A stretch of DNA of 64,000 nucleotides. It comes from Octopus vulgaris (lineage: Eukaryota). A program made the position numbers and the translations under genes. The stretch is taken from assembly GCA_951406725.2 (NCBI GenBank), contig OX597823.1, forward strand, positions 28,706,001 through 28,770,000, in the 5' to 3' direction. A model generated the notes under the pieces. That model was given only the letters and a program-made list of their open reading frames with translations. It had not been told where the DNA came from and searched no databases. This document shows, in pieces, positions 3,520 to 57,952 of the stretch (positions within the stretch are counted from its first letter, which is position 1; every line of letters starts with the position of its first letter).

Positions 3520-3560
3520 TTTCCTCCGTCTTCCCTTCTCTGGATCTTTCCTTTTCCTAT

Positions 3561-3595
3561 GTTTCTGACGAAGAGCTCCGCTCGAAACGTAAAAC
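3561..3595 (+). ncRNA. Minimal type I hammerhead ribozyme, canonical core
   Basis: GUUU-CUGACGA-A-GAGC ucc GCUC-GAAA-C-GUA/AAAC; palindromic ACGU stem III; lies in a ~180-bp unit (about 3520-3700) bounded by (TA)n. Confidence 0.85.
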
Positions 3596-3692
3596 CCTCC
3601 TCCTTCCCTTCCTTCCCGAGCGTCCGATAATACTATATTTGTTCCACGTCCTCGCGTTGTAGTGTTTTCTCTTTGTGTTTTCATGTTTGGAT

Positions 3693-3942: not shown

Positions 3943-4394
3943 AGAGCTACTGGAATGTGTGTGTAATCAATATATTCAGCTGCAAAACTCAAATAGATGT
4001 TCATATTTATACACTACCCTTTGAGAGTCCGCAATCAGTGATTGAGATTTCTAATCACAAACACTTAATACACAATCTAACCGTGTAGCTTAGTAGCCAG
4101 ACATTGAGAGCAGTTAGTTTATATAGCAGACGTGTGTCTCTGCTTGAGATCTCACATGCCTTCCGCTTATATCTACGTGAGACTATGAAGCAAGGTTAAT
4201 AAATATTGTATTTGATAACTATGGAAATACTGACAATGCAGCTGAAATTCTGCTGGAAATGTCATCTTTGCCATTATGGTCTTCAGCTCGATGGCAAATT
4301 TCACTAGGTTTTTATTACTGCTTTTCTTGTGGCATCTGTTGCTGTTTTACCCTCGATCAGTGATTTTACAGTTCTATATTTAAGAGATGAGGAA

Positions 4395-4697
<303 letters not shown>

Positions 4698-4810
4698 GTT
4701 CGAAATTTCCTCCAAACACCTGATGAAGGTTGAAGGGTATATCAGCCAGAACGTTGCGTTAATAAGAAACAAGATGAGGACAAATATCCATCAAATGTAA
4801 ATAATGTAAA
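4698..4810 (+). mobile_element. Inverted copy of the 3' end of the adjacent element, with degenerate HHR (4715-4760)
   Basis: Reverse-complement match to about 4395-4500; AACAC-CUGAUGA-A-GGUUG...CAGCC-AGAA-CGUU-GCGUU. Confidence 0.75.
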
Positions 4811-9926: not shown

Positions 9927-10012
9927 TATCAAAATAAGCAACATGATATCCAGAGTTAATGCAGTACGATCGATTCAAGCGATTCCATTTAATTGAACAA
10001 TGCAGCCATTGT
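9927..10012 (-). mobile_element. Inverted, 5'-truncated copy of the HHR-bearing 3' end at 10783-10866
   Basis: TATCAAAATAAGCAACA...ATGCAGTACGATCG.TTCAAGCGA is the reverse complement of the 10810-10866 region. Confidence 0.7.
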
Positions 10013-10401
10013 TCAATTAATTAGTTCAACTAGAGCTGACAGTACAATGAAACGTACTTCCTGTCCACTTCATCTTATAGGTTGATATCAACCTGTTATT
10101 GTTTAAACTGGTCACTTGAGCAACGTTGGAAGGACTATAAATATCATTAGTGCTTCCACCTCTTTCCAGCTTCCATCAGGTAGCAGTAGTAGTTGCTTGA
10201 AACCTAACTAATTCCAGCTTAGACAAGGATTATATTAAAACTTAAGAAATATCTTCGGCTGTCGTCAGCGATATCACACGGTTACAATTATCCACACTTG
10301 TGATATGGCGTGCAATGAAGGGAGAATAGCATCTCATCTTGCGCTCTCTCTCGCTCGCACACACATACACACGTATGTATATATACATTTATGTATATAT
10401 T

Positions 10402-10476
<75 letters not shown>

Positions 10477-10496
10477 GCTTTAAGCTTTTATAAAAA

Positions 10497-10544
<48 letters not shown>

Positions 10545-10746
10545 CAAAACTTTAGATTCAAATGAATTAGGTACTTAAGTTGAAGCACCAGAATTTATAG
10601 TACGATATTATAAATATAGTTTCAAAATAAGGTGATTAAAATCAATATCAGAAGTCCTTTGTCCATCTCCTCACGTTCTTGGAGGGTTTAGGTAAAATTA
10701 TATAAATGTGTCCATCAGTTTTAATTTGATTAAATTCTATGTATTT

Positions 10747-10834
10747 ATGCAGCTGAGGATTACTCTGCATTTAAATTGATGTAATGGTTGCATTGTTCTA
10801 TTAAATGGAGTCGCTTGAAACGATCGTACTGCAT
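10747..10834 (+). ncRNA. Type I hammerhead ribozyme with long stem II
   Basis: AUGCAG-CUGAGGA-[ACUC..CAUUUAA...AUGUAA ugg UUGCAU...UUAAAUG GAGU]-cgcuu-GAAA-CGAUCG-UA/CUGCAU; 6-bp stem I, palindromic ACGAUCGU stem III; base of stem II imperfect. Confidence 0.7.
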
Positions 10835-11435
10835 TATCACTGGATATCCTGTTGCTTATTTTGATACATATATATATATATATATATATATAAATTAAAG
10901 ATAAAGATAAATATATATCAAGAGCAAACGAGTACATATACAAGTCGCCAACATGCTACAAAAATACGCCAATGTCTAAAATCTAACTTAAGATATCATC
11001 ATAAAGTATAAACAAGTGCTATCTCTCTATCTTGATTTCAAGATTAACGGGTAATCCCTTTTTCTACCATTACTGTAATAAAACCCAATCAGTGCATATA
11101 AGTACGAACAAAATACATTCTCAGAACGGCTCCACAACGCGAATACACTGTTCGTACTTATATACAGAATAAAAATTCAAAAATCTGGTTTCGCTTATTT
11201 CCAGCACGTGTTAATGACCAAATAATTCAGCAGTGAAAATTTTTGGTTTGAATGAAATTATATATTTTTAATATATTTTAAATTTAAGGATAAAATCTAT
11301 ATTGGATTTTATCAGGTATTTTGCATTCAACAGGTTAAGTTTAAATTAATCAATTTATAAATTTATATCAAGGACATATATAAATATATATTTATACATA
11401 TGCATAATATGCACATATATGCATATATATGTGTG

Positions 11436-20570: not shown

Positions 20571-20580
20571 TATATATATA

Positions 20581-22927
20581 TATATTAATAAAAAGAATTC
20601 AAACCTTGTCTGATTTTCACGTTTTATTTACAATCTTATAATGATATATTATAAGATAATATATTATAATTGAATAAAATAAAATGAAATAGTAGAATGT
20701 TAAATATTCATTCTGATTGAACTAGTACTTTCATGCATTGAATTCTGCAATCTTCGGGTTCATGTAGTAGTGTTGACAGTCATGCTTCACAATTTTTGAC
20801 TGTAGCAAGATGAGTGATTCTGTGCTATAAATACAGCTGGGTAGGCTCCAGAGTGCTAGGTTTTGCAAACCGTATTCTGACCAATCAGTGTGTAGTATCA
20901 CTCAATTACTTAAGCTGATTGGTTGGTTGAGCTGATTGGTTTAGGCATCACGCTTTGTTGGACAGGTCAAGAGTCCTGTATCTTGACCCTGGCCGAAGCA
21001 GCAATTGTTGGGTTATTTTTAGAAATGTTGTAAATATCCTTTGTCAGAGATTTTTATATTTTTATATTTCAATTGTCATCATCATCATTGTCAGCACCTT
21101 AATTATTGTTGCTAGTGGTGATGGTGGTGGCAATAGAACTTTTAACCCTAAATAAGATAATTTTCCTGCTATCTTCGTCTTGATCACCTTTAGTATTGTT
21201 GTTGTTGTTAGTGGTCATGGTCGTAGCAGTGGAAGTAATACCTCTAAGTATTATTATTATTGCTTATTTAGCTTGGGTTCGAATTTATCAATAAAATTCT
21301 TTTCTCTGATTTTCCTCTCGATTTCACTTGGGCTGTGTAATTTGTAGAATGGAAATATTATATATATTTTCCGACCACATGTTGCTAGGTGGTTACTCAA
21401 AGGTATCTGACGGACCTCTGGGTCTCTAATCTGTTGCCGGTGTACACGTGAGCGTTCTAATAGTGCGTTTCCCGTCTGACCTACATATATTTCTTCACAA
21501 TTTGGGCATTTGATGCAGTAAATTAAATTTCTGCTTTTGCAGTTCATATTCGCGTTTGTGAATATTTTCCCGGTTTTTGTGTTTATATATTGACCGGTAT
21601 GTATGAATTGGCATGTGCCACATCGGCTATCATTGCATTTAGATACCGTGAATGTTTGGTCTTTGTTGCTGAGGTCAAATTTTGCCTTTGTTAGTAATGT
21701 TTTCAAGTTTTTAGGCTGTCTTTTACTAAGCACCATAGCTCGATCCTTGATTATGTCTTTTAATTCATTACTTTGGGCAATGATTGGTAGGTTTGCTTTG
21801 GCAATGTTGAAGATATTCTGGTGACATGGGTTGTGTGTCACTATGAATGGTATTACTTGTTCTTGTTTTCCTCTTCCTTGGGTTGTCCTAAGTTGTTGTA
21901 TAGGTATTTTTATAGCCCGCTGTATGCCATTTTCTATAAGTAGAGATGGGTATTTTTGTTTGAGCAAAAATTCTCTTAGTTCTATTAGGCGTTTGTTCCT
22001 GATATTTGCATCTTCTACAATAGTACAAATTCTTCTGGCTAGGCAGTATGGGATGTTACGTTTTGTATGTGGTGGATGGCACGACTTAAAATTTAGGTAT
22101 TGATGTGTGTCTGTGTGTTTATAGTATATATCTGTGGTGATGGTGGTGTCTTTTTTAATTACCATTATATCCAGGAATGGTAATTTGGTACTACTCATCT
22201 CCTTTGTAAATTTGAGAGATGGGTGTAGGTTGTTCAAGAGGATATTGAACTCTTCCAGAGTATTTAGAGATTCTGTCCAGATTATGAAACAGTCGTCTAG
22301 GTATCTCTTCCATGCCTTTTCAATATACTTTCTAAATCCAGTGCCATAGTTTACCTCCACCTCTTGGTAGAGTTGTTCTTCTAAGTATCCCATTACAGAG
22401 TTGGCGTAAACGGGAGCAAACCTCGTTCCCATCGCCGTGCCTCTAATTTGGATGTAATTCTTTCCATTGAAGAAGAATGTGTTATTTTCTAGAACAAGTT
22501 TGACTGTGTCTAATATAAATGGCACTGTGAATCTGCTGGGAATCACTTCTCTATGTTTTTCTAACCAGTATTTAATCGCCTTTATTCCTAAATCGTGTGG
22601 AATATTGGTGTAGAGGCTTACCACATCAAAACTTAGTAAAACTGAATTTGTTTCTGTTGTTTTGGGAAGATGGGACAGGAAGTCGATGTCATCCCTGATG
22701 AAACTTGGTATGTAAGTACATAGTGGTTTCAAAACAATGTCAATAAAATTGCTTAGACGGTGTGTAGGGCATGCTGGACCAGCTATAATAGGTCTAAGTT
22801 TTAGGTCTTTTGGATGTAATAATTTTATGTACTCACTTTCTTGTTCTTTTACTGCCTGTTGAATGTTTTTTGATTTGTGTATTTTTGGTAAGCCGTAGAA
22901 GTTGCTGGGTTTTGGTTCAAAATTGGT
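20581..22927 (-). mobile_element. Penelope-like element (Neptune type), left inverted arm, 5'-truncated
   Basis: Near-perfect reverse complement of 23431-25776; outer end abuts (TA)n. Confidence 0.95.
20718..20762 (-). ncRNA. Minimal type I hammerhead ribozyme in PLE 3' region (mirror copy)
   Basis: Reverse complement of 25595-25639. Confidence 0.7.
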
Positions 22928-22930
22928 CAA
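21257..22930 (-). CDS. PLE reverse transcriptase + GIY-YIG endonuclease, N-terminally truncated open frame
   Basis: FYGLPKIHK, LRPII, SFDVVSLYTNIP, GTAMG, RYLDD, LPFLD, YKHTDT..YL...SCHP, linker CNDSRCGTC, IYCIKCPNC..YVGQTG..R..H; the start codon is a junction artefact. Confidence 0.9.
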   Translation of the reverse strand: MTNFEPKPSNFYGLPKIHKSKNIQQAVKEQESEYIKLLHPKDLKLRPIIAGPACPTHRLSNFIDIVLKPLCTYIPSFIRDDIDFLSHLPKTTETNSVLLSFDVVSLYTNIPHDLGIKAIKYWLEKHREVIPSRFTVPFILDTVKLVLENNTFFFNGKNYIQIRGTAMGTRFAPVYANSVMGYLEEQLYQEVEVNYGTGFRKYIEKAWKRYLDDCFIIWTESLNTLEEFNILLNNLHPSLKFTKEMSSTKLPFLDIMVIKKDTTITTDIYYKHTDTHQYLNFKSCHPPHTKRNIPYCLARRICTIVEDANIRNKRLIELREFLLKQKYPSLLIENGIQRAIKIPIQQLRTTQGRGKQEQVIPFIVTHNPCHQNIFNIAKANLPIIAQSNELKDIIKDRAMVLSKRQPKNLKTLLTKAKFDLSNKDQTFTVSKCNDSRCGTCQFIHTGQYINTKTGKIFTNANMNCKSRNLIYCIKCPNCEEIYVGQTGNALLERSRVHRQQIRDPEVRQIPLSNHLATCGRKIYIIFPFYKLHSPSEIERKIREKNFIDKFEPKLNKQ

Positions 22931-25100
22931 AAGGACTGAAATTCACACCTACACCAACAGCCAACCACCAAGAATTAAAGGAGGATATCCAAAAATTCTG
23001 TCGAAAATTACGACTTGTAGAATTCTTCGCTAACAAAAGTAATGAGATTGATGAATCCCTAGTAAGGAATAAATCAAATTTCACCCCACCAAAAGGAAGA
23101 AATAACTACCTTGACCAATACATTGATATCCTGTCTAAATTTCCCCTTAGACGCAATACCAATGTTAGGCCAAACATTAGCAAATCAGAGATGTCTGCAT
23201 GTAAACGTATACAAAACGATCAAACAATAATAATTAAACAAGCAGATAAAGGTGGTGCAATTGTTATTATGGATACCGAATACTATAAGGATTTGGTTGA
23301 AGACCAACTGAAGGATACAACCTTCTATTGTGAAATACCCGCAAATATAGACCACCACATCATGAAAAAGATCAACAACCTGATTTCAACACACCACAAC
23401 TCACTTACGGATAATGAAAAAGACTACATCACCAATTTTGAACCAAAACCCAGCAACTTCTACGGCTTACCAAAAATACACAAATCAAAAAACATTCAAC
23501 AGGCAGTAAAAGAACAAGAAAGTGAGTACATAAAATTATTACATCCAAAAGACCTAAAACTTAGACCTATTATAGCTGGTCCAGCATGCCCTACACACCG
23601 TCTAAGCAATTTTATTGACATTGTTTTGAAACCACTATGTACTTACATACCAAGTTTCATCAGGGATGACATCGACTTCCTGTCCCATCTTCCCAAAACA
23701 ACAGAAACAAATTCAGTTTTACTAAGTTTTGATGTGGTAAGCCTCTACACCAATATTCCACACGATTTAGGAATAAAGGCGATTAAATACTGGTTAGAAA
23801 AACATAGAGAAGTGATTCCCAGCAGATTCATAGTGCCATTTATATTAGACACAATCAAACTTATTCTAGAAAATAACACATTCTTCTTCAATGGAAAGAA
23901 TTACATCCAAATTAGAGGCACGGCGATGGGAACGAGGTTTGCTCCCGTTTACGCCAACTCTGTAATGGGATACTTAGAAGAACAACTCTACCAAGAGGTG
24001 GAGGTAAACTATGGCACTGGATTTAGAAAGTATATTGAAAAGGCATGGAAGAGATACCTAGACGACTGTTTCATAATCTGGACAGAATCTCTAAATACTC
24101 TGGAAGAGTTCAATATCCTCTGAACAACCTACACCCATCTCTCAAATTTACAAAGGAGATGAGTAGTACCAAATTACCATTCCTGGATATAATGGTAATT
24201 AAAAAAGACACCACCATCACCACAGATATATACTATAAACACACAGACACACATCAATACCTAAATTTTAAGTCGTGCCATCCACCACATACAAAACGTA
24301 ACATCCCATACTGCCTAGCCAGAAGAATTTGTACTATTGTAGAAGATGCAAATATCAGGAACAAACGCCTAATAGAACTAAGAGAATTTTTGCTCAAACA
24401 AAAATACCCATCTCTACTTATAGAAAATGGCATACAGCGGGCTATAAAAATACCTATACAACAACTTAGGACAACCCAAGGAAGAGGAAAACAAGAACAA
24501 GTAATACCATTCATAGTGACACACAACCCATGTCACCAGAATATCTTCAACATTGCCAAAGCAAACCTACCAATCATTGCCCAAAGTAATGAATTAAAAG
24601 ACATAATCAAGGATCGAGCTATGGTGCTTAGTAAAAGACAGCCTAAAAACTTGAAAACATTACTAACAAAGGCAAAATTTGACCTCAGCAACAAAGACCA
24701 AACATTCACGGTATCTAAATGCAATGATAGCCGATGTGGCACATGCCAATTCATACATACCGGTCAATATATAAACACAAAAACCGGGAAAATATTCACA
24801 AACGCGAATATGAACTGCAAAAGCAGAAATTTAATTTACTGCATCAAATGCCCAAATTGTGAAGAAATATATGTAGGTCAGACGGGAAACGCACTATTAG
24901 AACGCTCACGTGTACACCGGCAACAGATTAGAGACCCAGAGGTCCGTCAGATACCTTTGAGTAACCACCTAGCAACATGTGGTCGGAAAATATATATAAT
25001 ATTTCCATTCTACAAATTACACAGCCCAAGTGAAATCGAGAGGAAAATCAGAGAAAAGAATTTTATTGATAAATTCGAACCCAAGCTAAATAAGCAATAA
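22928..25100 (+). pseudogene. PLE RT + GIY-YIG ORF with a 1-nt deletion frameshift near 24120
   Basis: ORFs 22810-24123 and 24045-25100; includes the IKQADKGG motif; ATCCTCTGAAC here versus ATCCTCTTGAAC in the left arm (real mutation or assembly error). Confidence 0.9.
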
Positions 25101-25417
25101 TAATAATACTTAGAGGTATTACTTCCACTGCTACGACCATGACCACTAACAACAACAACAATACTAAAGGTGATCAAGACGAAGATAGCAGGAAAATTAT
25201 CTTATTTAGGGTTAAAAGTTCTATTGCCACCACCATCACCACTAGCAACAATAATTAAGGTGCTGACAATGATGATGATGACAATTGAAATATAAAAATA
25301 TAAAAATCTCTGACAAAGGATATTTACAACATTTCTAAAAATAACCCAACAATTGCTGCTTCGGCCAGGGTCAAGATACAGGACTCTTGACCTGTCCAAC
25401 AAAGCGTGATGCCTAAA

Positions 25418-25531
25418 CCAATCAGCTCAACCAACCAATCAGCTTAAGTAATTGAGTGATACTACACACTGATTGGTCAGAATACGGTTTGCAAAACCTA
25501 GCACTCTGGAGCCTACCCAGCTGTATTTATA
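25418..25531 (+). promoter_or_regulatory. Candidate Pol II promoter in the PLE pseudo-LTR (mirrored at about 20826-20939)
   Basis: CCAAT at 25418 and 25435, ATTGG at 25472, TATTTATA at 25524, all upstream of the HHR (25595) and AATAAA (25729). Confidence 0.45.
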
Positions 25532-25594
25532 GCACAGAATCACTCATCTTGCTACAGTCAAAAATTGTGAAGCATGACTGTCAACACTACTACA

Positions 25595-25639
25595 TGAACC
25601 CGAAGATTGCAGAATTCAATGCATGAAAGTACTAGTTCA
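25595..25639 (+). ncRNA. Minimal type I hammerhead ribozyme in PLE 3' region, U4C core variant
   Basis: UGAAC-CCGAAGA-U-UGCA gaauucaa UGCA-U-GAAA-GUAC-UA/GUUCA; palindromic AGUACU stem III; HHRs are an established feature of PLE pseudo-LTRs. Confidence 0.75.
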
Positions 25640-25816
25640 ATCAGAATGAATATTTAACATTCTACTATTTCATTTTATTTTATTCAATTATAATATATTA
25701 TCTTATAATATATCATTATAAGATTGTAAATAAAACGTGAAAATCAGACAAGGTTGGAATTCTTTTTATTAATATATTCTTCTATACACAATCACACACA
25801 CCCATATATATATATA

Positions 25817-32350: not shown

Positions 32351-32593
32351 CTACTTGAAGGTAGCCAGGAGAAGAAAGATAGTAGCAGAGTTCTCGTCGC
32401 GGATCAACGACGGGACAGAGGAGGAGTAGAAGAGAAAGGGAGAGAAAAAAAGGGAATGGTTGTAGAGAAAAGAATGAAGAATGAGAGAGAGAGGGGGAGA
32501 GACAGTAAGGTAGAAGAAAAATAAAGACAAAAGAATGAAAGCTGAGAAATATATATATATTAGAAGTTTTGTAGATGATGTACAGGTATTATG

Positions 32594-32775
32594 TATTAGA
32601 AGAAATAAGGTACTCAGAAATCTGGTTGGTTTTATATTTAGAGATTTTTATTAATATGTCAGATGTTTTTATAAATATATGATTTATATATATGATTTAT
32701 AAAATCATGTACCATTAATAAAAATCTATAAATATAAAATCATTCAGATTTCTGAGTACCTCATTTCTTCTAATA
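32594..32775. repeat. Inverted pair of ~60-bp element tails
   Basis: TATTAGAAGAAATAAGGTACTCAGAAATCTG... / ...CAGATTTCTGAGTACCTCATTTCTTCTAATA; a related tail lies at 57720-57800, downstream of the second PLE. Confidence 0.65.
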
Positions 32776-46591: not shown

Positions 46592-47129
46592 TTTCAAATT
46601 AACTACTCTGCATCATATTATGGACATTTACTGTTAACTGCACATGACATCCTGCCTTTTCATTTGAAACATGCCGTATTGCGGTAGGTAGTAGCATGTG
46701 GGTACCGGGTAGATATGTTACCGATGGTAATATAACATAATTATGAAATATATCGATTTCACTCAACTAGTCTTTTAAGGTTCATGGATACAAATAAAAG
46801 AGGTAATGTAAATATTTAAAAGAGCTACGCGGTCTTCTTTATGGGTTTTGTTATCTACTGGGAAGTATGTTTTGATGGAAAGAATTGTTAATATTATTGT
46901 ACTTCATTGTGTTTTTGATTTTATTCGCTTTGAGATCAGTTGGGCTTCTACTGCTGACACGGTACTTCGGATTCTAGCTTGAATTTCAGCCCCCCAAAAG
47001 TAGTATCCATATATTTTAATTTTTACTTTTATTCTCTTATTCACCTTTATATTTCTTATTTCTATCCTTTTTCAAAACAACTCCTCATATTGAACTCTAA
47101 TATTTCCCTCTATTTAAACATCTCACATC

Positions 47130-47177
47130 GTCTCTGATGAAGGGATATCCCTAATATCCCAGAAACAGCTGTTAGAC
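47130..47177 (+). ncRNA. Minimal type I hammerhead ribozyme, canonical core
   Basis: GUCU-CUGAUGA-A-GGGAUAU cccua AUAUCCC-A-GAAA-CAGCUG-UU/AGAC; palindromic ACAGCUGU stem III. Confidence 0.85.
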
Positions 47178-48577
47178 TACCTTTCTCTTTATAAATGCCA
47201 TATGAATTCCACACAGCATAAGCCCATGATCAGGGATTAGTCGATACCATCGACCTAAAGGATATGATTGGTGTCTTATTTTATCGACCGTGAAGAAAGG
47301 AAAGGCAAGGTTGACGTTGGTGGGCTTTGAACTCAAAACGTGAAGAAGCCGAATAAAATACTGGAAAGCTTATTTTCTGATTCTGCCAGCTGACTTCTTT
47401 TGTCAAAGGAATATTAACATTGAGAAATGGGAACGCACGTATCCCTAGAATACTATGTTGAGAATAAAATATAAACATTTTGCTTTTGTCTTTAGCTCCC
47501 CTAGTTCCACTGAAGCAGGAATACAGTCAAAGACATTCCAGCCAGACTTTCTTGACATATTTTACATCGAAAACTGCAATTTGTCGGTTCTGAAGATGCT
47601 AAAGTGTGATTCAACGAAAATTTGGACAGTTATTTCTGATATGTTAAATAGCAACATAAAGTTTCGATGAACTAAGATTTTGCTGTCACTTAACCGAATA
47701 TAGTAGCTAGCTAGGAGTGCGGGCTAGGGAGTGCTCCTCTCGGCAATCCTTTTGGTTTTGCAGTATTTGTAGTGAGGGCCCAGTGTAGAAACTGCAAACT
47801 CAAGGGTTGCGTAACACACTCTAACTACGCCACTGCCCGAATGCGGTGCCTTGAACTTTGGATTAGGCCTCATTAATGCTGCGCATCTCTTCCTGATTTT
47901 GTTTACAGCAATTACAGAAGATGGAAGTGGCTTCCTAATAGATATTTTATGTTTTCAATTTGCTTTACATCCCTGTAGAAAGCCTAAGTTCAGCTTGAAA
48001 TGGTGTCTCTCTTGTCGAGATGTATTTCAGGTTTTATTTCTTGGTAATGATCATGCAATAATTGTTGGAAGTATATATCTTGGAATTGTCGTTTCATAGA
48101 GCTCTTCTACGTTGAAACGTAGCGTGAGGAAATGGTTAAGAAGTTCGTTTCGTAATGGCAAGATCACGGGCTCGATCCCACAGTGTGACATCTTGGTCTT
48201 TATATTTTTCTACAGCTTCAAGGTGGGCGCAAGATTCGACACTGAGAATGATCAGAGGAAAGTTGTGTGTAAACGAATTGTATGTATTTAAATGTCCAAC
48301 CTTGTCATACGATATGTCACTGTGATACTCTCTGATGATTACATTACCAGTACACGTGCCTGTGGAATATTCAGCCATTTATATGTCATTTCAATGAGTA
48401 GAAACACCAGTTGATCGAACTCTTGAATCTGTTGTGTACACAATATGATAGCAAGTTGCCCTGATTAATCCAGAGAGCGGTTTCATGCACGTTTTCGCTG
48501 CTTTGTCTCATAAATTAAACTTTATTTTCCTCCTCGTGTATCTCATACTTTTGTAGTTATTCCATACAGTAATTCGA

Positions 48578-51602: not shown

Positions 51603-51958
<356 letters not shown>

Positions 51959-52255
51959 GAAGAAGAGCTCCGGGCTGAATAACAACATGGATGTTCCCTG
52001 GGAGCCTCTCTCCAAAAAACGAATTTAATCCAACAACATCGTTGCAATGGAAGAAAGGTTCCACAAAATATCTTTTCCAAATGTTCTTTTAAGGCAAAGT
52101 AACTAAAAAGTCCGAACTATTATTGCCATATATAGTATGCTTTTCTTTCTTTTATGCATAATATTTCCATGTGACATGCATAAGAAATAGAAGCGAACAT
52201 CAGAGCTCTTGAAAGACAGTAAGTACATAAATTGATTAATTAATTAATTAATTAA

Positions 52256-55200
52256 ATAAGTATACATGCAACTGTTTATGCATACACGTAGACATTTTAA
52301 TTGTAAAGTATACATGCAACTGTTTGTGCATACATGTACACATTTTAATTATAAAGCATAAATAATGCTTACACGCGCTCACACGTACACACAGAAAGAA
52401 AAACCACGTTACGCGGACGAAAACAAAACAAAAACAAAGCGATTTTTCACGAACAAACGCAAAAAAGAGCAAATTGGTCACTGAATTTAGAAAGTCACTG
52501 AACAGTTATGCCCGGAAACATGACTACCAAAATAAATAGAGGCGAATTTCGATCTGTAAGTCTTACGCGAGTTCGATATGAACAATATATTAATTCGGAG
52601 AATTCAGAAGCGGTGTCTTGTCAAAAAATTGACCCTGTACAAACACTCCCTTCTTCTAACGTCACCGTCACAGAAGCGGCGTCTTGTCAAAAAGTTGACC
52701 CTGAAAAAATGGACCCCTCTGATGTCGCCGTCAATCATTTAATGAAAACAAGCCAAAAATCATGCCGGATCGGTCATCGCCCGGGACAACAAGGACCGCG
52801 TTACCCAGTAGGGAACCAGACTGGGGTCGAAAAGTTTGCTGCTGGAACAAACTCTCAAAAAGACGATCTACCAGGTGACCAGAACCAGAATACTTCTAAC
52901 TCTGGACTTGTAGTGACACCACCAAAAACACCACCTAAAGCAAAACGTATAAAATGGACCAGAGAGGACTATAGAGATGTGTTGAAAGCTTTTTATACAG
53001 CCCAACTAAACCCAAACAATAACCTCAGTGTACAAACATACATCTCATGGAGAAATTCAGTAGGCAATGACGTACGTAGATATATAGACGCAAATAAATT
53101 AAGTAATGTACGCAGAGATATAATTAAAAACAAAAGACTAACTGACGCTGAAATGGACAAAATTAGGACACTAATAGCTCATGGTAGACCAAAAGAAAAC
53201 AGCAACAATGTAGACGAAATAGGTAACAGTAGCACAGAAGCCAGTGTACAAGCGGCAAATCAACTTCCCAATGGGGAAGTTAAACAAAGAATAGCGAAGA
53301 CGAGATATTTGAAAAAAGAGGAGAACGTAGACCTTCCTCAAGAAAACCAAAATAGATATGACATAGAATTTGAGGTGACTAATAGAGAAAAGATTATGGA
53401 AGCAAAAGTGGACATTATGAGAGAACTCGGCAAGATTGAGCTCACTGACATGGTTAATAGAGAACCACTACCAAAGTTTTCAAATGGCACAAGAAATGAC
53501 AACACAATCATGACATATAACGTTGCCCTAGGACAGATCTTAAGAAATAAGGGGAATGATTTGACAACCTTAAATAATCTCATTTATTCAACTGCTAAAG
53601 TAGTAACTACCCAACTAGGTATTAAGATGACAAAGAAAAAGGCCAGGCATGTCAATGAACCTCCTAAGTGGAAAGTAGCGATACAAAAAGAGATTGAATC
53701 TCTGCGGGCGGATGTTTCAGTTCTCGATGAGCTTGCTAGAGGAGTGAATATTAAGCCGAGAAAAGCTAGAAAAATCAAGCAAAAATATAAAATCAAAGAT
53801 CTCATAAACCTCCCTGCAACTAAGGAACTGTTGAAACAACGGATACAGTTGAAAGCTCAACGGCTTAGAAGGTATGACAAAAGAAACAAATTTTATCGAC
53901 AAAATAAATTTTTTAAGACAGATGCAAAGAAATTTTATAGGGAAATTGGCAAAAATAAAATACACATAGAAGATCCACCTAAGATTGAGGATGTGGAGGA
54001 GTTCTGGAAGAAGGTATGGAGCAACGAAAAAGAGTTTAATGCTGAGGCTGACTGGATAGAACGTGAGAAAGAGAGACTGGATGAACTTGAAGAACAGAAA
54101 TGGGAAGCAATAGGAATAGAGGAGCTAAGGTGTGTCCTTAGGAAGGCTCATAAATGGAAAACCCCAGGACTGGATCGGATCCCTAACTTCTGGCTGAATT
54201 GTTTGACAGAGGTACACGGACATCTCGCTGCATCTCTGTCTGATATCATTCAGAACCCAGAGCAAATACCTGCTTGGCTGACTGAAGGAACCACCTACCT
54301 ATTACCTAAAACCGAAGACACAAAAAACCCAAAGAATTACCGGCCAATAACATGTCTCAACACCACCTACAAAATCCTCACATCCATAATAACGGAGAGA
54401 ATGTACGCTTTCCTTGAACAAAATTCTATCCTTCCACAAGCTCAAAAAGGTTGTAAAAGAAACTCTTATGGGTGCAAAGACCAATTGCTCATAAACAGAA
54501 TGATTGTAGAGAATTGCCGGAGCAAAAACAAAAACCTGAGTATGGCATGGATAGACTACAGGAAAGCGTATGACAGTGTCCCACATAAATGGATACTCAA
54601 GGCCCTTGAGATATACAAGATCTCTCCTGTCGTCTCAAAATTCTTAGAGAATAGCATGACCATGTGGAACACACGTCTCTTTCTAAGCCATAGTAATGGG
54701 ATGAGCCAGTCCAATAGCATCAACATCAAACGAGGCATCTTTCAAGGTGACTCCCTCTCTCCATTACTTTTTTGCATGGCACTGATCCCACTCTCAAACG
54801 AATTGGATAGTACCAGATATGGGTACAAAGTTTTTAGTAAGTTAATAAACCACCTTTTCTATATGGACGACCTAAAGCTGTTTGCCAGGAATGACCAAGA
54901 GCTAGAAGGGCTGCTAACAACTGTTAAAGAGTTTAGCAATGATATCGGGATGGATTTTGGCCTTGATAAGTGTGCTAAAGCAACTTTTGTAAGAGGCAAG
55001 CTCAGGCAAACAGCTTCTGTTAAATTAGATATTGACACTACCATCAAGGAACTTGACCCACAAGAAAGTTACAAATACCTAGGAATCAACGAAGGAGATG
55101 GTATACATCATGCTACTATGAAGGAAAAGATAAGAAAGGAATATTATAGGAGAATAAGGCTTGTACTGAAGACTGAACTCAACTCCAAAAATTGCATTGA

Positions 55201-56568
55201 GGCCATTAACACCCTGGCACTTCCAGTAGTCCAGTACAGTTTTAACATCATTAACTGGAACCTTACGGAACTCCAACGCTTGGACAGGAAGACAAGAAAG
55301 TTACTGACATCCAAGAGCATGCACCACCCTAAGGCAGATGTAGACCGCTTGTACCTACCTAGAAGCAGCGGGGGGAGAGGAATGATGCAATTAGAGCTGT
55401 GCTATAAGACCTCTACTGTAGGAATGAACAGGTACCTATCTAGTACAAAGGACTGGATGCTGCGCCTTGTGTGCGAACACGAAAGCAGCAAAAAGCTGCA
55501 TTCTATTGTCAAGGAAGCTTATGAGTTCGAAAGGGAACTAGACGTTAACCTTGAATCAGATGAAGAGTCGGAAACCACTGCTACCAAGCAAGCAAAGCGA
55601 ATCAAGCAGACTGCAAAAAAGAACGGGCAGAATCAAATTGAGAGGCGGTGGAGCCAGAAGCCCCTGCATGGACAATATATTCTCCGAAGCCAAAATGCTG
55701 ATGTAGACCAAGCAACAACCCATCAGTGGCTGAAGAGCTCTGGATTGAAAGCAGAGACTGAAGGCTTCATAATGGCAGCACAAGATCAAAGCTTGTTTAC
55801 CAGAAATTACCAGGCTAACGTTCTCCGAAACGGTACTGACCCTAAATGCAGATTCTGTGACACATTTGACGAAACAATAGACCATCTCGTTTCGGGATGT
55901 CCTGTGCTGACACCAAACGAATACAAAAATCGCCACGATAGGGTAGGACAGTATATACATTGGAAGATATGTAAACACTACAAATCCGACACTCCTGCTA
56001 ACTTGTATGAACACCATCCTCAGCCAGTTGTTGAAGGTAAAGATGTCACCATCCTCTGGGATTTTCCAGTCAACACTGACAGAACGATCAAGGCTAATCG
56101 ACCAGACATAATTGTGAAAGACAGGGAAGAAAATACCTGCAGACTAATAGAAGTAAGCGTCCCCACTGATAAAAATGTATCTGTCAGGGAATTTGACAAA
56201 CTTAGTAAATATAAGGACCTAGAAATCGAAATACAGAGGATGTGGAATCTTAAAACAAAAACTGTTCCTGTTATTGTAGGTGCCCTAGGTATGATAAAAA
56301 AGGGATGTCAGAAACACCTAGACAATATCCCTGGAAAACCATGTCTCAAGGAAATCCAAAAGATTGTGCTAACAAGTACTGCCCACATCCTTAGAAAAAC
56401 CCTATCAATGTAAATGTTTGTGTTTGCATTACATGGAGATATATCTCTACTTCCCCTCCCCAAGCTTTCAGCTATATTTCAACAACTCTTAACCTTCACT
56501 TGCCCTAGGGCGCTGGGTGTGCTCCGGCAAGTGATTGCATCAAACATGCAGATTAAAAGTAAATGACA
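52256..56568 (+). mobile_element. Apparently full-length Dong/R4-clade non-LTR retrotransposon
   Basis: Single intact ORF, ~150-bp 3' UTR ending in (TAA)n; 5' boundary uncertain (51958 or about 52256). Confidence 0.85.
52508..56413 (+). CDS. R4/Dong-type protein: Myb-like N-terminus, RT, CCHC finger, RLE endonuclease (1301 aa)
   Basis: RIKWTRED, KWKTPGLD, NYRPITCL, DYRKAYDSV, GIFQGDSLSP, YMDD, YKYLG, CRFC..ETIDHLVSGC, RHD, RPDI..IEVSVP..K..KY..L. Confidence 0.95.
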   Translation: MPGNMTTKINRGEFRSVSLTRVRYEQYINSENSEAVSCQKIDPVQTLPSSNVTVTEAASCQKVDPEKMDPSDVAVNHLMKTSQKSCRIGHRPGQQGPRYPVGNQTGVEKFAAGTNSQKDDLPGDQNQNTSNSGLVVTPPKTPPKAKRIKWTREDYRDVLKAFYTAQLNPNNNLSVQTYISWRNSVGNDVRRYIDANKLSNVRRDIIKNKRLTDAEMDKIRTLIAHGRPKENSNNVDEIGNSSTEASVQAANQLPNGEVKQRIAKTRYLKKEENVDLPQENQNRYDIEFEVTNREKIMEAKVDIMRELGKIELTDMVNREPLPKFSNGTRNDNTIMTYNVALGQILRNKGNDLTTLNNLIYSTAKVVTTQLGIKMTKKKARHVNEPPKWKVAIQKEIESLRADVSVLDELARGVNIKPRKARKIKQKYKIKDLINLPATKELLKQRIQLKAQRLRRYDKRNKFYRQNKFFKTDAKKFYREIGKNKIHIEDPPKIEDVEEFWKKVWSNEKEFNAEADWIEREKERLDELEEQKWEAIGIEELRCVLRKAHKWKTPGLDRIPNFWLNCLTEVHGHLAASLSDIIQNPEQIPAWLTEGTTYLLPKTEDTKNPKNYRPITCLNTTYKILTSIITERMYAFLEQNSILPQAQKGCKRNSYGCKDQLLINRMIVENCRSKNKNLSMAWIDYRKAYDSVPHKWILKALEIYKISPVVSKFLENSMTMWNTRLFLSHSNGMSQSNSINIKRGIFQGDSLSPLLFCMALIPLSNELDSTRYGYKVFSKLINHLFYMDDLKLFARNDQELEGLLTTVKEFSNDIGMDFGLDKCAKATFVRGKLRQTASVKLDIDTTIKELDPQESYKYLGINEGDGIHHATMKEKIRKEYYRRIRLVLKTELNSKNCIEAINTLALPVVQYSFNIINWNLTELQRLDRKTRKLLTSKSMHHPKADVDRLYLPRSSGGRGMMQLELCYKTSTVGMNRYLSSTKDWMLRLVCEHESSKKLHSIVKEAYEFERELDVNLESDEESETTATKQAKRIKQTAKKNGQNQIERRWSQKPLHGQYILRSQNADVDQATTHQWLKSSGLKAETEGFIMAAQDQSLFTRNYQANVLRNGTDPKCRFCDTFDETIDHLVSGCPVLTPNEYKNRHDRVGQYIHWKICKHYKSDTPANLYEHHPQPVVEGKDVTILWDFPVNTDRTIKANRPDIIVKDREENTCRLIEVSVPTDKNVSVREFDKLSKYKDLEIEIQRMWNLKTKTVPVIVGALGMIKKGCQKHLDNIPGKPCLKEIQKIVLTSTAHILRKTLSM

Positions 56569-56652
56569 ATAATAATAATAATAATAATAATAATGATAAT
56601 AGAATGAATGTGACCTTGATATTATGTAAATAGAGGAATTTATTTATAAATA

Positions 56653-56817
56653 TATATGACAATCAGTTGGTTGTCATAATACAACTCAGAGTTTCGGATG
56701 CCGGGGCTTAAGTCTGCTCCGGCATCTCACCAGAACTGATGAGATGCCGGAGCAGATATCAGCCCTGGCATCCGAAACTCTAAGTTTTATTATGACAACC
56801 AGCTAATTGTCACATAT
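56653..56817. repeat. Palindrome made of two head-to-head HHR-bearing 3' ends
   Basis: Each arm reads CUG(A/G)UGA-GAUGCCGG...C(C/U)GGCAUC-C-GAAA-CUCU(A/G)AG-UU; arms joined at CAG-AA-CTG (56731-56738). Confidence 0.75.
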
Positions 56818-56887
<70 letters not shown>

Positions 56888-57952
56888 CATATGCGTAAAT
56901 ATAAGAGGGAATTTTTTAACTACTATGTAGAAACCGTTATGCTAGATGAAGATCCGCTATGGTCTCAACCACTAAGAATTGTTCTCCAGAAAATTTAGCA
57001 CACCAGAAACGTAAGCGAGATCTTAAAGTTCGTCATTATCACTTCTTAAATATAAGTGATAATTTCTGTTTCTTTCTTGGCTGAGATGCTGATAGTCACT
57101 GACGGGTAATCGAGGTCATGTGGGAAGTGAAAGATATTTTAAAATCAAATAAGTTTTTTTTTTTTTACCAAATAATATTGGTCCTTGTAAATTACGTTCA
57201 TACGAGTATCCGAAGCTATGCGTATATGTGAATATGCGAGTGTGGGAGTGCATAAGCAGCAAATTTAATATTTCTTTCTTTGAGAAGTTAAAAGACTATC
57301 CAACATATTGTTTAGAAATGGAGAGACTGTTAATAGAAAGAATTCCTTAAATTAAATAACTCTGCTCAAAGGAACATCAACAATAAAAAAAAACGAAACA
57401 AACATTGCTACGTCTTGAACACTCTTCATGAGATGGGATGAAAGCGTTAGGTTAGAAGTATGTCCTTCTTCATCTGTACTTTCTGTTTTTTTTTCTTTTG
57501 TTCCAATTTAAATCATCGAGAAAATAGGATTTCATTTGCATATTTTCTCTGACACATTTCTTGTTCCCTATTCTACTATAATCTTTTTTATAATTCAATT
57601 CTCCACTGGAAACTTTTCATTATTATACAGACAGACTTCTCAGTATATCCTTTGAGTGCGAGAGTGTGTATGTATGAATATGTATATATATATATATATA
57701 TATATATCGGAAGGTTTGGAGATGATGTACAGGTATTATATATTAGAAAAATTGAGGTAATCAGATCAGATGGTTCATATTTGTAGATATTTATTTATAT
57801 ATTACATTTTTTACATATATATCATATCATTTGGATTAGCGCTTGCTCCCATTCTAGTGGGTTTTCAAATCAAATCAGTTGTGGGTAGTTTGAACCTTTT
57901 TATAGTTTCGTAGTAGTGGGTGAGGAGGAAGTGAGACAGAGAGAAAATATGT

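Follow-up and report, generated by a model that had tools for sequence, protein, structure and literature searches.

The question raised by this locus is how two copies of the 3′ end of a hammerhead-bearing element came to lie back to back in a 165-bp palindrome of the Octopus vulgaris genome. A sequence-only reading of the window, by which we mean the whole 64,000-nucleotide stretch analysed here, had described 56653-56817 as two ribozyme 3′ ends fused at the catalytic core and had grouped it with four other cases into a general insertion mode, in which both sides of a target break are primed on RNA 3′ ends and hammerhead dimers deliver two RNAs to one site; as points to be checked it had named junction microhomology, different subfamily variants on the two arms, and a fixed-length MITE. 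The palindrome is real. An arm-to-arm comparison matched the reverse complement of 56653-56733 to 56736-56817 at 71 of 81 positions, and both arms begin at the CUGA core, with a 2-base gap between their starts. Both outer ends are element 3′ termini, as had been claimed, but comparison with copies elsewhere in the genome showed that they are not equivalent, the left arm running on through the family tail to approximately 56598 (+140) and the right arm halting at +82 (Table 1). Of the TA repeats said to border the arms, (AT)n is present on the left at 51789-51851, beyond a LINE, whereas the sequence directly to the left of the palindrome is (TAA)n and then the LINE itself. As ribozymes both arms are now incomplete: the core on the left has become CUGGUGA, and the right arm (56736-56817) has lost the 5′ strand of stem I, carries G47A, and does not have a hammerhead as its best fold. 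The right arm has no further copy within the window; its own genome (2.8 Gb) yielded 1,255 candidates and numerous inverted pairs. The palindrome at 56598-56817 is a single insertion of a Penelope-like element (PLE), consisting of two 5′-truncated copies joined back to back, and is an ordinary, damaged copy of what we term family A. Its fusion at the ribozyme core is incidental, since spacers between the arms elsewhere in family A range from −5 to 2,799 bp.

Table 1. Coordinates, within the window, of the inverted pairs and their surroundings.
Feature	Position	Strand	Description
Family C pair	4366..4810		Minus arm tailed (to 4366), plus arm without tail (to ~4810); each has a hammerhead-like core
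Family E pair	10562..10864		Minus-strand piece consisting of tail only (10562-10651), joined to a plus arm without tail (10654-10864)
Family B tail-less arm	20580..22927	-	-2347..0; Neptune/Nematis-type PLE, RT and GIY-YIG
Family B tailed arm	22926..25803	+	-2852..+26, then (AT)n; 2-nt junction overlap
Family D pair	32555..32775		Minus arm with a 36-nt tail (to 32555); plus arm without tail
(AT)n-(TAC)n-(TAA)n	51789..51957	.	Probably the remaining tail tract and the original left target flank
Young full-length LINE	51958..56569	+	1303-codon open frame 52502-56413, RVT_1; inserted in the tail's (TAA)n
(TTA)n end of tail, expanded	56570..56597	-	Target of the later LINE insertion
Tailed ("long") arm, family A	56598..56733	-	Family positions +1..+140; core mutated (CUGGUGA)
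Tail of the left arm	56598-56652	-	~55 bp beyond the mirrored part; overlooked in the sequence-only reading
5′-to-5′ arm junction	56732..56735	.	2-base spacer; possible 2-nt overlap
Tail-less ("short") arm, family A	56736..56817	+	Ends at start site 1 (+82)
Parts of the tail-less arm	56736-56786		Core 56736-56742; stem II 56743-56772; GAAA 56774-56777; predicted cut after 56786
(CA)n(TA)n	56818..56892	.	Right target flank

The LINE at 51958-56569, which its motifs suggest to be R4/Dong-like, had 246 candidate relatives, of which the 40 that were scored fell at 95-99%, and nine further copies that were checked have the same start point after (TAA)n. Because both flanks of family-A pairs are (TA)n, a target-site duplication is illegible in them.

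Longer copies of family A extend upstream of the core into a 3′ UTR rich in repeats and the C-terminal portion of a frame, in which we recognised a CxCx5C linker and a CxxC..E..N..CxH motif (L079, L098, and L124; L114, L115, and L129). These motifs are marks of the Hydra clade of PLEs (PMC8557442), and, judged on the C-terminal part alone, family A is putatively the 3′ end of a PLE with Hydra-clade motifs, resembling the members of that clade, as the accessible text of the same source describes them, in its C-terminal endonuclease-region motifs, its hammerhead, and its (TA)n targets. No intact family-A copy was found, the N-terminal part being absent from all loci used; the endonuclease piece, represented by decayed C-terminal parts only, had no match in Pfam and none to family B by BLASTP. 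Atlas look-alikes of family A at 0.94-0.95, with GIY-YIG in 40-50% of members, provide a lead. The family-A consensus passes a descriptor of type I hammerheads (CUGANGA/GAAA/NUH core, stems I-III, and a 3-bp palindromic stem III); an Rfam scan had no hammerhead among the matches listed (150 of 155), which were microsatellite noise, and ARAGORN made zero tRNA calls. The type I core and palindromic 3-bp stem III are shared with the minimal dimeric PLE hammerheads, likewise in a terminal repeat (PMC4209133), and with animal retrozymes (bioRxiv 10.64898/2026.07.22.740005), as far as the available portions of these sources describe them, but family A differs from both in that it is not a tandem retrozyme array, an extra base precedes GAAA, and its cleavage is a predicted one. 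A non-LTR retrozyme was considered and rejected, as same-strand neighbours occur in just 2 of 111 family-A clusters and the upstream sequence is coding. Two more hammerhead-like motifs in the window, at 3540-3620 and 47110-47200, pass the descriptor.

The family-A census covered 140 loci, drawn from the best 30 of a DNA search and the loci around the first 100 of 136 exact matches to a 27-base pattern, and resolved 189 arms into 111 clusters: 64 simple back-to-back pairs, 39 singles, and 8 complex clusters. In 57 of the 64 simple pairs one arm is tailed and the other tail-less (p = 4e-11 against independent ends). The 7 exceptions comprise one true two-tail pair, L101 (G000:C10:91665502), which is the sole family-A pair tailed on both arms, and otherwise a misclassified end, a stem-II self-match, or shortened arms. 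Spacers were counted in 46 core-reaching pairs, this locus included, after two stem-II self-match artefacts were dropped from the 48 listed; most are 13-34 bp long, and 7 of the 46 are 5 bp or shorter. The arms end at two fixed sites, approximately 30 and 100 nt beyond the hammerhead cut site, which lies intact within the arm, a result at odds with the proposed priming on RNA 3′ ends. The tailed site lies 45-65 nt past the tail-less site, and both ends adjoin (TA)n. Past the cut site, the family-A strand has three possible pairing partners, stem I and each of two similar TTGTCA motifs, which directly precede the two start sites (consensus +57..+64, +72..+78, and +141..+149), and family D likewise repeats CTTCTAAT at both ends; alternative helices may select the start site. 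At the other end of the arms, 81 of the 189 5′ starts fall within -20..-1, and three arms only (L063, L082, and L087) carry an extra G before the ATAG stop, where longer copies have C. Such an extra G is expected when a reverse transcriptase runs off a capped RNA end, and run-off at a capped 5′ end, with transcription starting in the pLTR, is the likely origin of the many arms that halt a short way 5′ of the hammerhead. A pile-up left by a trailing enzyme was also sought, both at start site 1 and at the hammerhead cut (+52), and arm ends have no clear peak at either.

The four other cases in the window are likewise real inverted pairs, belonging to other families, although only the mirrored part or the wrong partner had been given. 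The spans reported as 4395-4810, 32594-32775, and 20581-25776 are in full 4366-4810, 32555-32775, and 20580-25803, each with one tailed arm, and 9927-10866 was mispaired, the true partners being 10562-10651 and 10654-10864 and the arm at 9927 being separate. One tailed and one tail-less arm were found in 4 of 4 pairs of family C, in 3 of 3 of family D, and in 5 pairs of family E in addition to that of the window, and the generality that had been claimed is supported, inverted 3′-end pairs occurring in five families here. On the minus strand of 4500-4700, a tRNA-like head and (TAA)n lie upstream of the family-C hammerhead, and ARAGORN makes no call on them.

Family B is very young, with a unit of 4,271 bp, 1,531 exact 3′ ends in the genome (545 of them with the exact tail), and a divergence of ~0.1%. 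One frame upstream of its terminal repeat contains RVT_1 (E = 2e-6, below the cut-off) and GIY-YIG (E = 2e-5, above the cut-off), and on its sequence features, namely RT and GIY-YIG in one frame, a pLTR, an inverted 5′-truncated copy, and a one-sided tail, it is classed as an endonuclease-bearing PLE. Among the first 100 family-B ends, 43 fall in 20 back-to-back insertions; together with nine pairs found later and that of the window, all 30 pairs, read by eye, are one-tailed, and pair ends adjoin (TA)n on both sides. After 8 of 31 junction rows were dropped as TA-repeat artefacts, 19 of the remaining 23 overlapped by 1-6 nt (p = 0.001 against a rough chance rate of 50%), which bears out the expectation of junction microhomology. 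Exact 4,271-bp tandems of the unit exist, and arms are longer than one unit in L208, L209, L263, and L266. In the unit at L222 (G000:C1:27840500-27850400) the frame is in two parts of 430 and 636 codons, between which there may be an intron or a frameshift, and L218 (G000:C1:142517200-142524650) has an almost symmetric junction (-1127/-1137), its tailed arm bearing one whole additional unit that may have been inserted later, in tandem, into the tail.

The 5′ ends of family B peak at -223..-217, ~30 nt after a TATA-like box, and one identical junction in this region recurs 76 times. Thirty recurrences were examined, 5 of them overlapping loci already described: a single tail is present in 27, an arm is broken in the other 3, and none is two-tailed; the centre base lies on either arm (16 versus 11). 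This recurrence, along with ends in TA, is what a fixed-length palindromic MITE moving as a unit would produce. We nevertheless consider a MITE exceedingly improbable, and refuted for family A, because almost every family-A locus has arm lengths and a junction of its own, and the spacer range given above leaves neither length nor centre fixed, because the recurrent junction lies on at least 5 haplotypes with the tail on either side, and because arms reach into PLE coding sequence. A descriptor search of the family-B unit found neither CUGANGA on its sense strand nor a relaxed core accompanied by a stem II. Clades such as that of family B usually carry a hammerhead; as family B forms pairs without the core, ribozyme dimers are not required.

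Variants shared between arms bear on the templates. Paired arms of family A differ at 12.7% of sites overall, yet they share non-consensus states at 0.016 per site, compared with 0.0054 in 2,000 re-pairings (maximum 0.0093), and a marker at +34 (40%, non-CpG) is concordant in 43 of 47 pairs and discordant in 4. In family B, shared variants amount to 0.0021 per site versus 0.00015 on re-pairing (maximum 0.0018 in 500), and young pairs with a recurrent marker confined to one arm number zero. At the recurrent junction, 79 of 79 callable marker genotypes are concordant (43 expected) over at least 5 haplotypes, a test weakened by the partial succession of family-B haplotypes in time. The arms of 56598-56817 have zero variants in common, and this locus is therefore uninformative by itself on the donor question. 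Both arms of 20580-25803, by contrast, carry -1657T, -1274A, and -291G. The 37-mer containing -291G has 3 genomic matches, one in each arm and one in a single copy on C17, against 1,531 exact 3′ ends, and -1274A has 12; the C17 copy bears all three markers plus three changes of its own. Both arms of 20580-25803 thus descend, by their haplotype, from one rare donor. We rejected a two-donor reading of three clustered differences between these arms (22495-22527 versus 23831-23863), which are arm-private changes: the right haplotype is unique, the left recurs once, in an old copy at 98%, and 29 young copies have a third state.

That the pairs are two separate insertions, or products of later rearrangement or conversion, has some appeal in that (TA)n tracts do gather nested insertions, as with the LINE in the tail and the arm at 9927. 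It is nonetheless a very improbable origin given junctions without a TA tract and the strict one-tail rule, and the rare haplotype is also present in a distant single copy, so that conversion is not needed for its sharing by both arms. Comparably little probability attaches to the idea that hammerhead dimers bring two RNAs, of any donors, to one break and that these are primed at their 3′ ends. The stem III of family A is indeed minimal and palindromic, a type considered to act as dimers (PMC4209133), but no pair had arms of different subfamilies, which counts against two different RNAs on the very comparison that the sequence-only reading had named; family B lacks the core, arms end beyond an uncut site, and independent RNAs would yield symmetric pairs in about half of cases. 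Published work points the same way, in that Naiad and Chlamys PLEs have the same layout without canonical hammerheads (PMC8557442) and hammerhead mutants leave insertion in vitro unchanged (PMC11167929), according to the portions of those papers available.

Whether one arm could be a copy of the other was examined through nesting. With a threshold of at least 10 nt, the tail-less arm extends further 5′ in 15 of 57 family-A pairs and the tailed arm in 10. For family B, 7 of 30 pairs were set aside as ambiguous (L218) or for want of clean 5′ ends, and among the 23 mapped the tail-less arm extends further in 15, by up to 3 kb, and the tailed arm in 4. The tail-less arm leads significantly in family B (15 versus 4, p = 0.019) and not in family A (15 versus 10), so that a rule by which the tail-less arm always leads was rejected, being true for family B only. 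In non-nested pairs neither arm can be a copy of its partner, and tail-only arms (L089, L080, L120, and 10562-10651 of the window) have no overlap with theirs at all. A central deletion after insertion could imitate non-nesting, but this account would have to include frequent, one-sided losses in a very young family. Self-priming, in which one strand folds back and copies itself, has been proposed for an antisense template (PMC3846280, in the text accessible) and would place the same donor on both arms and leave palindromic junctions with short loops, such as those of L218, L047, L084, and L020. We judge it improbable: it predicts nesting, against which stand the un-nested pairs of both families, including those in a family diverged by ~0.1%; the arms of 20580-25803 share no variant absent from their sibling and have 3 private changes each; and fixed start sites on (TA)n at both ends are left unexplained.

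We consider it probable, on the combined counts, that one RNA serves as template for both target strands, a PLE dimer priming them at two fixed start sites, and that the cDNA ends join via microhomology. A dimeric RT-GIY-YIG protein would cut a (TA)n target on both strands, and its subunits would prime on the same RNA, one of them using site 1 and its partner site 2. Both RTs would then copy toward the RNA 5′ end, with the trailing one displacing the first cDNA, after which the two cDNA 3′ ends would anneal and prime each other's second strand; the hammerhead would be a passenger. PLE RTs are not known to have RNase H. We lean, by a little, toward the more specific form of this proposal, a one-RNA, obligatorily asymmetric, two-ended integration with two RTs in tandem on one template, for which copying kilobases twice from one RNA needs a strand displacement that is hypothetical for PLEs. 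Against the one-RNA proposal are the two-tail pair L101, the 4 of 47 pairs discordant at +34, and the in vitro start site, which is the same for both strands (PMC11167929, in its accessible text) and so offers no basis for the asymmetry.

Sequence alone cannot tell one RNA from two RNAs of one donor. An asymmetric dimer might instead prime, one per site, two RNAs of one donor locus, or else a pair of pLTR copies within a single tandem transcript, and this would fit the same-donor sharing of variants and explain the overlap of arms without strand displacement; the 4,271-bp tandems and the arms exceeding one unit (the four loci named above) are in its favour. We regard it as unlikely, in that all 7 of the young pairs that have a marker in the overlap are concordant, despite the coexistence of several donor lineages of comparable age, and it offers no simple reason for the use of one site each or for tail-only arms.

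The one-RNA proposal has a close counterpart in LINE-1 twin priming, in which the second target strand starts copying at an internal position of the same RNA and the cDNAs join by microhomology. Tail-only PLE arms fit this scheme exactly, whereas L1 inversions are not known to overlap and PLE start sites are both fixed, with arms that usually overlap by 80 bp to 3.5 kb. No proposal of twin priming for PLE inverted copies was found in the literature searched; subscription papers may discuss it.

Inverted-pLTR PLE insertions with a one-sided tail have already been described (PMC8557442 and PMC3846280), and the elements in the accessible text of those papers are like ours in having an inverted 5′-truncated copy joined at the 5′ end, (TA)n targets, a pLTR hammerhead, and a tail that is often one-sided, although the tail there is 30-40 nt versus ~60 nt in family A. 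The same portions give no counts and leave the mechanism undefined or attribute it to self-priming, whereas the one-tail rule, the same-donor origin, and non-nesting are counted here; the origin of PLE inverted repeats with a one-sided tail is stated to be unsolved (PMC8557442). The layout itself is thus already known, and what is new here is the donor tracing and the hammerhead-free family. The Poseidon_Ac protein, as described in the available part of PMC11167929, cuts and extends both strands in vitro, starts at two sites bounding the tail, takes uncut RNA as template, and is a predicted dimer, all of which agrees with the proposal; in that part there is no strand bias of the start site, and inverted products are outside the analysis.

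The counts narrow the options for how these insertions arise: priming occurs at both ends and at fixed sites that differ between them, the donor is the same for both, and the hammerhead is unnecessary. PLEs are the retroelements nearest to telomerase, and family B (20580-25803), with ~1,500 ends, intact frames, and a divergence of ~0.1%, is a ready substrate for a deciding assay. If the one-RNA proposal is true, the inverted copy and one-sided tail of a PLE would be the direct footprint of one event, and of a mode of target-primed reverse transcription distinct from that of R2 and from L1 twin priming.
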